From NCBI GenBank assembly GCA_964276515.1, contig OZ193909.1, forward strand, positions 14,694,001 to 14,758,000: DNA of 64,000 nucleotides, read 5' to 3'. Positions 48,081 through 59,500 of this stretch are shown piece by piece. The notes beneath the pieces are model-generated. The model searched no databases. It was given only the letters and a program-made list of their open reading frames with translations, and had not been told where the DNA came from. Both the position numbers and the translations under genes were made by a program. Source of the stretch: Gordius albopunctatus. Its lineage: Eukaryota. Positions within the stretch are counted from its first letter, which is position 1, and each line of letters begins with the position of its first letter.

Positions 48081-50095
48081 CGCCGAGGTCGGTGAGGGAT
48101 GGTACTATTCCTTCATGGCTTTACAACTACACCGCCATTGCAAGGAGTATCGCTTTAAACACCATCTCTCCCGACGATGGCCCGGAGTTGGAAGAACTGG
48201 TTCACCCTTCTAACACGCTGCAACCCAAACGTACCAATGTGCCGGGACATCTCCTCGATCAATGGACGGAGGTGGGTTTGGATTGCGACAACCCACCTAT
48301 CATTAGCGAACCGTCCAATATCCCCTCATTCCCCTCCCACCTCCTCTCGTCATTTACCAACTTTTCGCGGCCTTTATCGATTCGGACTTCCATTCTGAAG
48401 CCACACTATTTATAATCACGATTCACTAACAACATTGCAAGGAAAGGCTTTAAGCCTAGATTATCTCGCATTAGTATTGCGGCAAATAACGGTCGCTATC
48501 ATATTCCTAGGTACGTCAAAGCAATTCCGTCGGAACACAAAAGACTGGTGGATGAAGTGATACTAAGCAATGTGGTCCGAAAAAACCCTTTAGCTATTCC
48601 TTCTCCAATGTACTTTATCCCGAAAGCAGATGGATCTCCACGACTCATCGCGCACTTATCACAAGTCTCAAAAAACTTCATTAAATATCCGTTCTCCTTA
48701 AAATCTATCCCACTCATCGCATCCTCTCTATCAGATGCTTTGTATATGACCAAGATCGATATGAAATCGGCTTTTTTCTTAATTCCACTAGCACCGGAAT
48801 TATCAAAATTCTTTGGGTTCCGATACAGGAGGCAGAAGTATTGTTATAAAGTTCTCCCTATTGGAGCCAGCTTCTCCCCGTTTGTCTTGCAGCAGATCAT
48901 GCTAGACCTCTGCAGCAAGGCAGTCACCAAAAGTAAATACAATGTATATCTGGACGACATTTTAATTTTCGGACGGTCAGCAACTATGGTCAAAGCGGAT
49001 ACCCGTAGGTTTCTATACCTGGCGAAATGCTGGAATCTTTCAATCAACCGCACCAAATCATCGTTAGAACCAGTCAAGATTATCGATTACTTAGGTATCA
49101 GTGTAAACTTAGAAAGCCATACCCTGAAGGTTAATCCCAAGTTCGTCACGAAGATCGACGCAGCGATTCAAATCATGAATCATTTCATTTTAACGGGAAG
49201 CAAACCACACCCGTTGGTCACGCAAACTTGCTTAGGTATACTCACCCACTACACATACATGCTGACTGGTTGGTCCAAGTTGATCTCCCCGGCATACAAC
49301 ATCCTGCTAGCCGGTGACCCTGCCCCTTTCGACACCGCCTGGCTAGTAAAGAAGATCCTGATGATTCAAAACCACTTATCTTCCCCGTTCTCGATGAAAC
49401 GCACCCCCAACGGATTCACAACCGGAGACGCCTCCACGTCCCACATTGGCTTATTCTACAGAGGATCTATCCTCTCCGTCGCCAAGGGTGACGCGTTGGC
49501 CATCTTCGGCTGCCACGACCTAATTCCTACCATCAACTTACTGGAGCTCATTGCCATCCCCCTCGCCTACATCAAGGCTGCAGTCGACACCCCACACATC
49601 ACACCCAAGGTCCTCACGGATTCCAAAACCGCCTTTTACATCATCAAAAAAGGGGCAGCTCATGCACCACATCTAGAGCTGGCCTTCACAAGGATATGTC
49701 ACACGATGGGACTGAATCACATGCTAAACATCAAGCAGAACTTAGAATGGATCGGCACGGAACACAATCCAGCTGATGCCCCCTCCAGGGAGAGTCACTT
49801 CAACGACAGCGAGCTTGGCAGAATGGTCTGGTGGACACGCTCGAACATTTTGCACCGCTAGAACAACACCCGATTTGCTAAACCATAATACCGTAAATGT
49901 TCCTAAGAATTTTACTATATCTTACGACCCCTTTTTTTACGCTATTATCGTTTCTCTCGCGCAGTGTAAATCTCTGCTACTCGTTGCTACAAAATTTCTC
50001 GCGTAAATTTACATATCACAAATTCTTATGAATATTTTATAATAGTTTTTATGCATGTTGGTAATTTTGAAAAATAAAACAAGAGTTAAGGGGAT
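48081..50095 (+). mobile_element. DIRS/hepadnavirus-like retroelement copy A (5'-truncated): pol 48081-49861 with one premature stop, plus 3' non-coding end
   Basis: RT: SPMYFIPKADGSPRLIAHLSQ, TKIDMKSAFF, LPIGASFSPFVL, YLDD, YLG. RNase H: GDAST, INLLEL, TDS, NPADAPSR. A single TAA at 48413-48415 (Q in copy B), with the frame continuous on both sides. Confidence 0.88.
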
Positions 50096-56500: not shown

Positions 56501-59500
56501 TTCTCTTGGTTAAATTCGTTTATGCCAAGAAGAGCCTCGTCGAGAAAGAATATCCCTGACACCACTCCCCTTAATAAGTATTTTTCCAAGTTCACGTCCC
56601 TCAGTAAGATCCATTCATCGACGCAAAACGCCCTGATGACCTCCCCAGATAAATCTTCCACTGGTGCCACCATCAGCAGTGACGCATTAGGATCTGAATC
56701 AATGGTTAAGATGATTCTGGATCGGCTAGCGGCTATGGACGCCAAGATCGAAAGAAATCTGCTGGACAGAAGTGAGGAAACGATCGGTGGGGTTGAAAAC
56801 ACACTACACTGGGCCCCATCACCGGTTGCCGAAACAGTTACAATGACACGGGCCGAGTTGGACACGCTCTTAGCAAGGGAAAGAGCGCGCCCCACCAATT
56901 TACCTAGCTCCAACACGGAAATCCTAAAGCTCCGGTTAAAAGACCTCCGTGAAGCTATTGAAACCAATTATACGATGCCAGCCTATCAAAAACACGAAGC
57001 GGAGTTCCTACTCAGCTTGGGCGATTCCATTGATGATTACAATAAGACTGTTGACAAATTCTCGGATAGGGTCAGGACACTTGCCATGGCGTCATACTAC
57101 GGTTGGCAGGCCGTCACAGGCAAATCTAAAGACTGGGCAGAAAAGATGGGCATGGGCCAGTATACCGAGCCGGTCCAGCTTTTTCGTGCGCCTGATCCAA
57201 GGTATGCTCCGAGGAAGAAAGGCTCTCAATCCAAAGGGCCACCTCCGCCTCGGGCGGAGAGAGCGTAGTTATGTAAGGACGGTAGCGGCGACCCTCGGCA
57301 GTGGTGATAACCCGCCGAGGTCGGTGAGGAATGGAAATGCACCAACATGGCTCTCTAATTACACGGCCATAGCTAGGAGCATCGCTATCAACTCCATTTC
57401 TCCCGACGATGGCCCGGAGCTGGAGGAGTCGATACACCCCTTCAGTACGCCGCTACCCGAACATACAAATGTGCTGGGACATCTCACATCTCAATGGACG
57501 GAGGTGGGCTTGAATAGCGAAGCCCCACCTATCATCAGCGAACTCTCCAACCCCTGCATTCCCTTCCCACCCCCTTTCCTCATATACACACTTCAATCTC
57601 CCTCTTTCTATTCGGACAACGGTATTGAAACCACATCGTTTACAAAGCAACTTTACCCGGAGAATCGCCACTCATGGTTTCAAGCCAAGCTATCGCGTAA
57701 AGCAATTGTTGAAAACCAAGGCAGATACCATGTCCCAAGCATAGACAAACCTTTTTTCTTTACCTCTCCTGTTCGAACAAAACGGCACAGCGCAAAACGC
57801 CATTGCGTGATATAGGACGGTAGTGTTCATCAAAATGGAGGCAAATTTCACACACAATTTGCCATATGGAACATATGACATGGGCAGTCTATGTAGTCTA
57901 TGGTCCCAAGATACGTCAAGGCGATTCCTCGTGAACACAAACCCCTAGTGGACGAGATCATTCTGTCGGATATCGTCCGTGCTAATTCCGACACCATCCC
58001 TTCACCAATGTATTTCATCCCTAAGAGGGATGGCTCTCCACGACTCATCGCTGATTTATCACAAATTTCCAAGAATTTCGTTAAATACCCCTTTTCATTA
58101 AAATCTATCCCATTAATTGCTTCTTCGTTATCAGAAGCAAAATTCATGACCAAGATAGATATAAAGGCAGCGTTTTTCTCCATTCCGCTGGCGCCGGAGT
58201 CATACAAATTCTTCGGGTTCCGGTACAGGAGACGCAAATATTCTTATAAGGTGCTTCCGATGGGAGCCAGCTTCTCCCCATATGTGCTGCAACAAATGAT
58301 GCTTGATCTTTGCAAGAAATCAATCACTAGGTCCAAGTATAATGTATACCTCGATGACATTCTGATATACGGACCCTCCGATACCCTGGTCCTGGCGGAT
58401 ACCTGGATCCCCCTAACTCTTGTTTTATTTATTGATATTTCCTCATGTAATATTATAAACAGCGAACGCGTATATAAATGTAAGATATGAAAGTAAACCG
58501 CGAGAAATTTTCCACGCCGACGAGGGTCAAGGGTTCAATAAGACACGAGAGGGGAAAGCATCACTTGTTGCAGTGTGTTGGAGGGTTCGCTGATGATAGG
58601 TGGGCCTTCGCTATTCAAGCCCACCTCCGTCCATTGAGATGTGAGATGTCCCAGCACATTTGTATGTTCGGGTAGCGGCGTACTGAAGGGGTGTATCGAC
58701 TCCTCCAGCTCCGGGCCATCGTCGGGAGAAATGGAGTTGATAGCGATGCTCCTAGCTATGGCCGTGTAATTAGAGAGCCATGTTGGTGCATTTCCATTCC
58801 TCACCGACCTCTGCGGGTTATCACCACTGCCGAGGGTCGCCGCTACCGTCCTTACATAACTACGCTCTCTCCGCCCGAGGCGGAGGCGGCCCTTTGGATT
58901 GAGAGCCTTTCTTCCTCGGAGCATACCTTGGATCAGGCGCACGAAAAAGCTGGACCGGCTCGGTATACTGGCCCATGCCCATCTTTTCTGCCCAGTCTTT
59001 AGATTTGCCTGTGACGGCCTGCCAACCGTAATATGACGCCATGGCAAGTGTCCTGACCCTATCCGAGATACCTGGATCCCCCTAACTCTTGTTTTATTTA
59101 TTGATATTTCCTCATGTAATATTATAAACAGCGAACGCGTATATAAATGTAAGATATCTTTTTTGATTGGCTCGTAAATTTTGCTGAAAGTGGCTTGCAT
59201 AGGTAATTGTCAAATTTTTCTTTTCCTGGACTTCTTTACAGCATTTATGCCTTTGGAGATGAGTGTTCCATATTAAGCATTATCAAAACAAGCTTAAATA
59301 ATTACCTGATGAGCAGGAATTATAGGATAACACATTCCTGCAAATCTTACAAAAAACAAAATCTATTTTATTATAATCTCCATACTACTTTACAAAAAAA
59401 ATTTCCGAATATTTTCAGCTATTAGCAGTCGATCTTTTTTGTTCCATACTTAATTGTATATTAGGACAAGCGTGAAATGAATAAATGAGTGTTTAACAGA

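Follow-up and report, generated by a model that had tools for sequence, protein, structure and literature searches.

The window analysed here, 64,000 nucleotides of Gordius albopunctatus contig OZ193909.1 (positions 14,694,001 to 14,758,000), contains four broken pieces (A, B, C and D) of one retroelement family with a unit of about 2.97 kb. The family is laid out as the repeat R (~125 nt), ORF1, a +1-frame pol that overlaps it and carries a reverse transcriptase (RT) as well as RNase H, R again, and a tail Y of ~95 nt that is unique. Its features in the window are:

48081–50095, plus strand: copy A (N-terminal part of pol, RT, RNase H, 3′ R and Y), 5′-truncated; the start may lie ~15 nt earlier
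48083–49861, plus strand: pol of copy A, with a premature stop at 48413–48415; RVT_1 match at E 1e-20
48081–48181, plus strand: long bulged RNA stem-loop in pol of copy A, also at 57313–57413 in copy C; z −3.8 and −2.75
49875–50000, plus strand: direct repeat R in its 3′ position (copy A), beginning ~15 nt past the pol stop; 0/1000 shuffles reach its score
50001–50095, plus strand: unique tail Y (copy A), its last ~20 nt conserved with lineage C
~50094–52019, minus strand: copy B, 5′-truncated and without the last ~20 nt of Y, with a one-base frameshift near 51357
~56357–58403, plus strand: copy C, the 5′ part of the unit (R, u, ORF1 and partial pol)
56357–56487, plus strand: direct repeat R in its 5′ position (copy C)
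56488–56518, plus strand: short leader u (copy C), with complementarity to Y's 3′ terminus
56519–57268, plus strand: ORF1, 249 amino acids, predicted mostly helical, with a basic C-terminal tail and no cysteine
57204–58403, plus strand: copy C's pol, counted from the first ATG; it overlaps the last part of ORF1 in the +1 frame, contains a MITE and is cut short soon after YLDD
57740–57902, strand not given: the MITE inside pol of copy C (163 nt, 8-bp target-site duplication, 7-bp terminal inverted repeat), foreign to the element
58398–58557, minus strand: piece D1, the 3′ part of R and the whole Y of lineage C, inverted against pol of C
58569–59068, minus strand: piece D2, an inverted copy of 57060–57558 (end of ORF1 and start of pol) with 7 differences in 500
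59067–59157, minus strand: piece D3, the final 91 nt of Y once more, with the same sequence as in D1

The overlapping copies A and C reconstruct a unit of 2,971 nt by summed coordinates, in agreement with the original prediction, and the predicted 3′ end of ~230 nt measures 234 nt from the pol stop to the end of copy A. The predicted order of 5′ repeat, ORF1 and overlapping +1-frame pol was borne out in copy C, the only copy in which the 5′ R and the ORF1–pol junction are seen. Two points needed amendment: the span 48081–59157, taken as the element, holds the real copies A–D but also host sequence between them (52020–56350), and the predicted 5′ repeat is present but also recurs just past the pol stop, followed by the unique tail.

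Ends of the element

The 3′ layout, which lacks a recombinase, is the same in A and B despite saturation of silent sites, and the R–Y order is also found in lineage C. Split direct repeats of the form A1...B1-A2-B2 were rejected: A1 and A2 are present as R, but no B1 matches Y (for the segment preceding the 3′ R against Y, 373/1000 and 450/1000 shuffles were as good). Inverted terminal repeats with an internal complementary region were likewise not found, the ends consisting of the direct repeat plus only the ~20-nt complement between u and the 3′ terminus. RNA folding gave no strong fold common to the copies of R, and no circular joint of a unit circle occurs among the joints listed from the contig sets (15 of 190).

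The duplex of u with the 3′ terminus of Y has calculated energies of −19.9 and −21.8 kcal/mol, values matched in 2/500 and 1/500 shuffles. The pairing of u with C's own Y was modest in an alignment test (82/1000), and the leader differs in one other copy in the contig sets. Self-priming from the 3′ end on u was rejected by reasoning because R–Y would not be regenerated.

Integration enzymes and joints

The predicted absence of an integrase, a tyrosine recombinase (YR), a poly(A) tail and a target-site duplication was upheld by Pfam, custom profiles and a background test for duplications. Profiles of tyrosine recombinases, terminal protein and core matched none of the 1,436 six-frame peptides of the window. 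The family copies in the window displayed no integrase, protease, methyltransferase or poly(A), no two equal LTRs as in LTR retrotransposons and Ortervirales, and no target-site duplication above background. The room for a recombinase ORF in the window copies is the 234 nt past the pol stop, ORF1 directly overlapping pol in C. The YR profile recovered four held-out loci at E<1e-26 but sees a VIPER-like recombinase weakly (E 0.019), and a remote recombinase elsewhere in the genome could therefore act in trans. Neither the hepadnaviral N-terminal Pfam family nor a profile made from six hepadnavirus P N-termini (its sensitivity to remote members is uncontrolled) detected a terminal protein. Penelope elements are marked by a telomerase-type RT lacking RNase H, a GIY-YIG domain and hammerhead ribozymes; pol displayed RVT_1 together with RNase H motifs and fold, and Rfam gave no match above chance to a ribozyme or any other family.

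Copies A and B are joined tail-to-tail at a 4-nt ATAT overlap and are 79% identical; a snap-back of one molecule was rejected because the arms differ by 21%. The 3′ end of D1 is joined, inverted, to pol of C at 5–6 nt of microhomology, and that of D3 to the interior of ORF1 sequence. All four 3′ ends (4/4) adjoin other element copies and none (0/4) adjoins host DNA. The insertions are truncated, inverted, chimeric and free of target-site duplications, and piece D bears visible traces of template jumps onto the 3′ end of an RNA. Considering (i) these ragged, chimeric joints, (ii) the lack of duplications and (iii) the failure to find an integration enzyme, insertion is probably passive, as originally proposed.

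Proteins and an RNA hairpin

The ORF1 product is likely a particle protein in the role of gag or core. No homologue was found among 1,171 candidates and no family was identified; Atlas matches to coronavirus nucleocapsid, all below 0.8, were rejected as chance. A single-sequence model of low confidence (pLDDT 51) had no fold match at E<=0.001, and a 15-sequence hepadnavirus core profile did not match.

Pfam recognises RVT_1 alone in pol. The RNase H-type motifs DAS, LELI, TDS and NPAD are present in copy A, and the protein ends 23 amino acids past NPADAPSR with no methyltransferase tail; DIRS controls have tails of ~140–210 amino acids, with weak Dam matches in 8/14. The original prediction had aligned pol motifs with those of HBV P. 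All motifs quoted for the family (e.g. RLIADLSQVSK, PMGAGFSPFVL, INLLELI and NPADAPSR) were found in A or B, and of the HBV counterparts PMGVGLSPFLL, DATPT and NPADDPSR were confirmed in hepadnavirus records and RLVVDFSQFSR in a published supplement. IHTAELL itself did not turn up, the forms encountered being IHVAELI and IATAELI. We rejected NPADxPSR, DATPT-like motifs and PF00336 (hepadnaviral RNase H) as proof of hepadnaviral kinship: NPADxPSR is present also in recombinase-bearing elements, and PF00336 matches neither this pol nor three Gordionus pols and is weak in 2/14 DIRS proteins. At the sequence level, RT motif B is more telling than these. In the form P[MFI]G...SP[FY]xL, which was defined after the alignments had been seen, it occurs in 3/3 members of this lineage, in 7/7 hepadnaviruses and in 0/97 evaluable DIRS-side matches, as well as in 8/20 unnamed compact proteins, including some placed with recombinase elements. 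By eye, the motif-B stretch resembles nackednavirus and HEART rows of a published alignment.

A Foldseek search with the pol model, in which residues 1–95 have pLDDT<50, aligned HBV P over 428 columns at an rmsd of 4.6, compared with 11–34 for the nine remaining rows of the top ten; the top viral match was an unnamed 634-residue protein with 603 columns aligned. A PDB fold search returned generic RT matches only (Z ~19–21).

The stem-loop inside pol is ~100 nt long with a stem-bulge-stem form, and both sides have changed in 4 of its 33 pairs. Silent change is suppressed across 48083–48330. An overlapping reading frame was rejected as the source of this suppression because the other five frames contain stops in A, B and C.

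Selection, abundance and phylogenetic placement

Purifying selection across A, B and C, as predicted, was evident from dN/dS values of 0.023–0.067 where finite in RT/RNase H, with third codon positions 51–60% different and amino-acid identity of 79–91%. Silent sites are near saturation, and therefore several lineages have replicated with the same layout. The family is multi-copy (depth ~5–50× single copy in two contig sets); a lineage contig below single-copy depth was rejected as evidence of an episome.

The only close relatives are RT proteins of Gordionus sp. (Nematomorpha, horsehair worm) at 37–46% identity and E down to 1e-90. These (XP_065317776.1, XP_065315196.1, XP_065315139.1 and CAK9296137/8.1), known here from protein sequences alone and annotated merely as uncharacterised, have the same RT-RNase H, no methyltransferase and a shared N-terminal I.xDG.EL motif. 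Most of the 150 next-best matches to pol are DIRS-like. A profile search retrieved mostly Gypsy-type proteins, with no named HEART, Ngaro or nackednavirus among them, and IMG/VR and GTDB contigs contained no relatives. Compact metagenome RT-RNase H proteins (P0011, P0018, P0021, P0038, P0088, P0129, P0117 and L079) share with pol a short tail past NPADxPSR; they lie mostly on 2–3.6-kb contigs, and several fall on the family's side of the tree. L079, the only one with known DNA context, has the same two-ORF layout without a recombinase but groups elsewhere. The compact proteins are only 20–26% identical to pol (alignment A3) and, unlike it, most carry DATPT and some exceed the PF00336 cut-off.

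The RT+RNase H phylogeny that the original prediction had proposed comprised 35 rows and 404 columns, the rows being 35 of the 65 in a quick tree from which six partial or near-duplicate rows had been removed beforehand; neither tree contains HEART or nackednavirus sequences or canonical animal references for Ngaro and PAT. One sequence (L046) aligned poorly and had a branch of 5.0. The window and Gordionus sequences form a clade (100/100) that is excluded from the starred DIRS(MT) (97/92) and recombinase (95/86) clades. The family was united with hepadnaviruses, leaving out the DIRS and the recombinase clade alike, in 952/1000 bootstrap trees for RT+RNase H, 761/1000 for RNase H alone and 533/1000 for RT alone, and the maximum-likelihood branch has 79/91. 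With RT alone, 401/1000 trees placed the family with recombinase elements; with RT+RNase H, 4/1000 and 27/1000 joined it to the DIRS and recombinase clades, respectively. The family leans to the hepadnavirus side of the tree, direct sisterhood with hepadnaviruses is seen in only 66/1000 bootstrap trees, and AU tests reject sisterhood neither with DIRS (p 0.297) nor with recombinase elements (p 0.253). In these trees the family forms a deep, separate branch that none of the sampled DIRS and recombinase clades includes, and it is likely nearer to hepatitis-B-like viruses than to DIRS transposons.

Interpretation

The family is undescribed and is not a hepadnavirus; the literature searched, with subscription papers including the HEART paper outside its coverage, holds no description of it. 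The original view of a recombinase-less lineage stands in that the element is compact, integrase-less and under purifying selection, but its hepadnavirus link is weaker than claimed (no terminal protein or core found, no PF00336 match). On balance we lean towards a multi-copy ~3-kb family of ORF1 and RT-RNase H pol that has no integration enzyme, is likely HEART-like on the hepadnavirus side, and whose cDNA is likely captured by host end-joining. The RNA would begin within the 5′ R and stop in Y, and ORF1 would package it via the basic tail. If cDNA begins at the RNA 3′ terminus, Y is retained; at the RNA 5′ end the RT would jump via R to a second RNA and so restore the part of R that lies upstream and bears the promoter, a step that base-pairing between leader u and the 3′ terminus may aid. 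The pol hairpin may have a role in packaging, in priming or in the translation of pol. Microhomology would link the linear products to one another, and they would then be joined to a broken chromosome.

Rather unlikely, in our estimate, is descent from the DIRS order (Ngaro- or VIPER-like), with loss of the tyrosine recombinase in the distant past and with insertion either passive or through a recombinase provided in trans. The general DIRS-type build of RT-RNase H, the predominance of DIRS-like next-best matches, the NPADxPSR motif common to recombinase elements, the permissive AU tests and an A..YGW motif in ORF1, which may resemble DIRS gag, point to such an origin; the absence of split direct repeats and of a methyltransferase tail, the clades that exclude the family and their few contrary bootstrap trees, the ragged and chimeric rather than precise insertions and the lack, by eye, of Ngaro RT signatures in a published alignment argue against it. 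We regard it as improbable that the copies are the remains of a reverse-transcribing DNA virus, exogenous and non-enveloped, that was related to proto-nackednaviruses, replicated as an episome and was repeatedly endogenised. Such a virus would fit the ~3-kb size, the +1 ORF1/pol overlap, the basic ORF1 tail, the terminal redundancy, the stem-bulge-stem hairpin, the diverged lineages side by side, the top viral Foldseek match and the presence of proto-nackednaviruses in invertebrate data (PMC12691608). A unit circle, however, would put the same sequence after both R, whereas three lineages keep a unique Y; furthermore, there is no terminal-protein or core signal, the motif is YLDD and not YMDD, the hairpin lies within pol away from the 5′ end, and IMG/VR holds no relative.

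TART is mobilised by target-primed reverse transcription at DNA ends. An endonuclease-free element primed in this way from broken or terminal host DNA, like TART or endonuclease-less Penelope, would account for 5′-truncated copies with their 3′ ends kept, 3′-joint microhomology and jumps to RNA 3′ ends, and the 5′ repeat recurring before a unique 3′ end recalls the non-terminal repeats of TART (PMC5537684). Such priming would place the element's 3′ end against host DNA, where none of the four 3′ ends lies; the RT is of DIRS/viral type with RNase H, and Rfam finds no ribozyme. We consider this the least credible of the alternatives and very improbable.

Returning to the HEART-like reading, a bolder version, which we hold only tentatively, is that these are a living animal lineage of integrase- and terminal-protein-free retroelements from the hepadnavirus stem, past the loss of the recombinase and before protein priming, showing the whole architecture (R-ORF1-pol-R-Y with end pairing and an internal hairpin), and part of an undescribed radiation of 2–3.6-kb RT-RNase H replicons found in metagenomes.

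Comparison with known systems

HEART retroelements were reportedly described by Gong and Han in 2018. They are invertebrate and non-viral, with an RT related to Blubervirales and a mobilisation that is unresolved (PMC12440569). In a published alignment their RT stretches resemble the family by eye (e.g. F.LKS.P and PF..QQ), but seven tick rows have Y/H-I/L-DN where the family pol has YLDD, with further differences elsewhere.

Blubervirales (hepadnaviruses, nackednaviruses and proto-nackednaviruses) share with the family a ~3-kb size, ORF1 overlapping pol, the lack of integrase and protease, motif B and terminal redundancy (PMC11551314, PMC12691608), and the RT-RNase H arrangement is alike in predicted models. 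The family differs in having no terminal-protein or core motifs, YLDD, no DR1/DR2 seen, a hairpin internal to pol, a unique 3′ tail and no sign of a circular genome. With the DIRS order (DIRS1, PAT, Ngaro, VIPER and TATE) it shares ORF1 overlapping an RT-RNase H pol, the absence of protease and integrase, a similar RNase H end motif and repeats at the ends; it lacks a tyrosine recombinase, a methyltransferase and both inverted repeats with an internal complementary region and split direct repeats, and falls outside the sampled DIRS clades. Even for a derivative of DIRS, it would be unusual to persist so long as a lineage without a recombinase.

In current models, hepatitis B viruses descend from a HEART retroelement of invertebrates, the mode of movement of which is unresolved (PMC12691608, PMC12440569). 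For an element on or near the hepadnavirus-HEART branch, the present family gives both ends, a candidate particle protein and a conserved RNA hairpin, and it shows that such an element can be maintained under strong selection without an integration enzyme. The passage from transposon to non-integrating DNA virus thereby becomes testable through priming, end restoration and extrachromosomal forms.

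Pieces of the element in the window

The span 48081–59157 is made up of four pieces of a single family, interspersed with host sequence.

Pieces of the element and adjoining features
48081–~50095, + strand: piece A, 5′-truncated, premature stop in pol
~50094–52019, − strand: piece B, 5′-truncated, one-base frameshift
~56357–58403, + strand: piece C, 5′ end, ORF1 and pol, ending shortly past YLDD
57740–57902: MITE of 163 nt inside pol of C, 8-bp TSD and 7-bp terminal inverted repeat
58398–59157, − strand: piece D, chimera of C-lineage parts
54172–56279 and 60471–60764, − strand: exon-like ankyrin-repeat frames of a host gene

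A and B meet at a tail-to-tail junction (79% identity). In C, ORF1 encodes 249 amino acids and pol (RT and RNase H), which lies in the +1 frame, starts with the ATG at 57204; D runs from a 91-nt stretch of the 3′ tail through 500 nt of ORF1/pol sequence (7 differences from C) to part of the direct repeat R with the entire tail. The original prediction that overlapping copies rebuild a ~2.97-kb unit is borne out by the summed lengths, which give 2,971 nt. From its TSD length, we take the MITE to be hAT-like. As C and D are flanked by two minus-strand exon-like ankyrin frames, they are probably intronic to a eukaryote gene, presumably TONSL-like.

The window also carries a large direct segmental duplication (13952–16428/31276–33753 and 18799–28137/33745–43094, 98.6–98.9% identity) holding broken LINE-like frames (25361–27268, 40318–41655; by eye, no Pfam match), a 32/33-bp satellite array (~43000–44800) with an internal inversion, strong GC skew and related pieces at 16426–16992 and 18174–18798, and a hAT transposase remnant (29726–30937; Dimer_Tnp_hAT, E 8e-4, below cut-off).

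Proteins, selection and a hairpin in pol

RVT_1 is the sole Pfam match, and tyrosine recombinase, terminal protein and core profiles match none of the 1,436 six-frame window peptides, in agreement with the predicted absence of a recombinase. As a control, the recombinase profile found four held-out loci strongly, whereas its match to a VIPER-like recombinase was weak (E 0.019). For A pol, modelled with AlphaFold from a 22-row alignment and with X in place of the stop, the RT and RNase H domains are predicted confidently, with residues 1–95 under pLDDT 50. For ORF1 the searches gave neither a homologue nor a matching family or fold; it is predicted to be helical and carries 8 K/R among its last 30 residues. 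A search of 1.84 billion representatives returned three proteins under 1e-30, all unnamed RT proteins of the horsehair worm Gordionus, and the next at 3e-28.

Between RT + RNase H copies, third positions are 51–60% different and 79–91% of residues are kept; dN/dS is 0.023–0.067 in the three of five comparisons with finite dS (the other two are saturated), which upholds the proposal of several lineages under purifying selection. Silent change is lower over 48083–48330, both between A and B (10/55 versus 225/402 codons, p 9e-8) and between A and C (18/56 versus 69/125, p 0.006), and no second open frame crosses this stretch. In A and C its start folds into a single long hairpin with bulges (z −3.8 and −2.75), the strongest among 20 windows along A, with both-sided changes at 4 of 33 pairs in a comparison limited to two independent lineages.

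The element stretch is present in two contig sets of a single study. In both, element bins reach ~5–50 times the depth of single-copy bins; the family is multi-copy, the depth giving no exact copy number. One contig of 706 nt runs collinear with ORF1 at 131 differences. One family copy lacks 241 nt of leader and ORF1 (56488–56730; contigs), and another lineage over 48319–49464 (206 differences in 1,146 nt) lies below single-copy depth in both runs.

Placement of the polymerase

In all three trees (FastTree, 170 rows; quick mixture tree, 65 rows; careful tree, 35 rows) the window and Gordionus proteins form one deep branch outside DIRS(MT), the DIRS-type rows with a methyltransferase, and its neighbours vary by tree. 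The careful tree excludes this branch from DIRS(MT) (97/92) and from the recombinase elements (95/86); the best tree joins it to hepadnaviruses and six compact RT-RNase H proteins (79/91). The hepadnavirus kinship is weaker than proposed: RT+RNase H bootstraps group the branch with hepadnaviruses, without DIRS or recombinase rows, in 952/1000 trees (with recombinase rows in 27/1000, with DIRS in 4/1000), but direct sisterhood appears in only 66/1000 and AU tests reject sisterhood with neither DIRS nor recombinase rows (p 0.297 and 0.253). Under a simpler model, RNase H alone gives 761/1000 with hepadnaviruses, and RT alone 533/1000 versus 401 with recombinase rows. The placement toward hepadnaviruses is a lean, not a proof.

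The comparison drew on 15 hepadnavirus records and on 120 metagenome loci that carry the motif at the end of RNase H. Pfam recognised 8 recombinases in 25 frames from these loci, and locus L084 is a VIPER-like circle with a recombinase read by eye (1–4176; identical 123-nt ends, 4,053-bp circle; its gag-like, recombinase-like and RT-RNase H frames follow one another as in VIPER/TATE). Because such elements carry the motif too, it was rejected as the hepadnaviral mark it had been taken for. VIPER RNase H is reported to group with hepadnaviruses (PMC6681497), which likewise calls for caution on RNase H motifs. RT motif B, defined after the fact, occurs in 3/3 of this lineage, 7/7 hepadnaviruses and 8/20 compact proteins, and in 0/97 evaluable of 110 DIRS-side hits; it is the more telling motif. 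PF00336 at E ≤ 0.1 matches 12/22 compact-alignment rows and 2/14 DIRS controls, and none of the window element's lineage. In Foldseek, HBV P comes fifth, with rmsd 4.6 across 428 columns where the remaining nine top-ten hits have 11–34, and the top hit is unnamed; this ranking cannot separate the readings because the library has no DIRS proteins.

Compact RT-RNase H proteins (P0038, P0088, P0117; also P0011, P0018, P0021, P0129), mostly on 2–3.6-kb contigs, may represent a large and so far undescribed group close to HEART and Blubervirales; three pass the PF00336 cut-off yet show no visible terminal protein. In the 3.0-kb metagenome contig L079 (1–3007), a short ORF1 overlaps an RT-RNase H pol, followed by a ~150-nt 3′ end, without a recombinase. 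An A..YGW motif is common to the ORF1 of L079 and that of the window; the two match at E 0.004 pairwise, and at E 0.28 when L079 is taken as the best among 813 frames.

Ends and repeats

The layout is R-u-ORF1-pol-R-Y. The first ~125 nt of C (R) match A and B sequence from ~15 nt past the pol stop (0/1000 shuffles), and the 5′ R of C is 94% identical to a piece in D over 53 nt. A short leader, u, and ORF1 follow the 5′ R, and a ~95-nt tail, Y, follows the 3′ R. Split direct repeats were ruled out, since Y has no counterpart in the segment preceding the 3′ R (373/1000 and 450/1000 shuffles). The terminal ~20 nt of Y are conserved across lineages A and C. The Y terminus can pair with u (−21.8 and −19.9 kcal/mol; 1/500 and 2/500 shuffles), and this region comes out top of the 321 and 674 windows compared; the plain alignment test is weak for C (82/1000), another family copy has a different u (contig comparison), and the pairing is a lead only. 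As predicted, no poly(A) was found at the element ends and no TSD, the longest flank matches (5 nt) equalling the background mode; a TSD could have been lost, because two of the four flanks adjoin high-copy host repeats.

Proposed cycle and its alternatives

Layout, missing enzymes, selection and junction types are directly shown; an integrase-free retroelement whose linear products are captured at chromosome breaks is somewhat more likely than not. ORF1 would package an RNA that begins within the 5′ R and extends to where Y ends. As Y is kept in all lineages, cDNA would start at the 3′ terminus of the RNA; closing a unit circle through R is disfavoured because Y would be lost. To restore the upstream part of R, the RT would have to switch through R to a second RNA, and in D RT template jumps are visible, once onto a 3′ terminus. 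Linear products would then join one another by microhomology and be captured at breaks, which would account for clusters in which pieces of diverged lineages lie truncated and inverted and lack a TSD. All four 3′ ends are joined to element sequence, two at 4–6-nt microhomologies, and none in the window to host DNA; target priming from host ends we regard as very unlikely.

A DIRS derivative that lost its recombinase is an unlikely but serious reading: the AU tests leave room for it, and the recombinase and repeats that define the order were not found in the window, nor do the bootstraps or the DIRS(MT) clade favour it. An endogenised virus we consider improbable; the defining terminal protein is missing. 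For the integrase-free retroelement, the ends and the RNA hairpin make the cycle testable.

Comparison with known systems

The literature searched contains no description of the family; the HEART paper lies outside its coverage, so similar ends may be described there. The text of the Gordionus genome preprint (10.1101/2023.06.26.546503) contains no 'retro', 'DIRS' or 'virus', and a term search of PMC12914980 had no matches. The elements of PMC11673190 are LTR-bearing and not relevant; the comparison also drew on PMC12691608, PMC11551314, PMC12440569, PMC7192593 and PMC5537684. The family is real; it is probably undescribed and a putative new form of the HEART-type integrase-free retroelements. 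It differs from the order DIRS in lacking that order's recombinase and repeat layout, and from Blubervirales in lacking the terminal protein.
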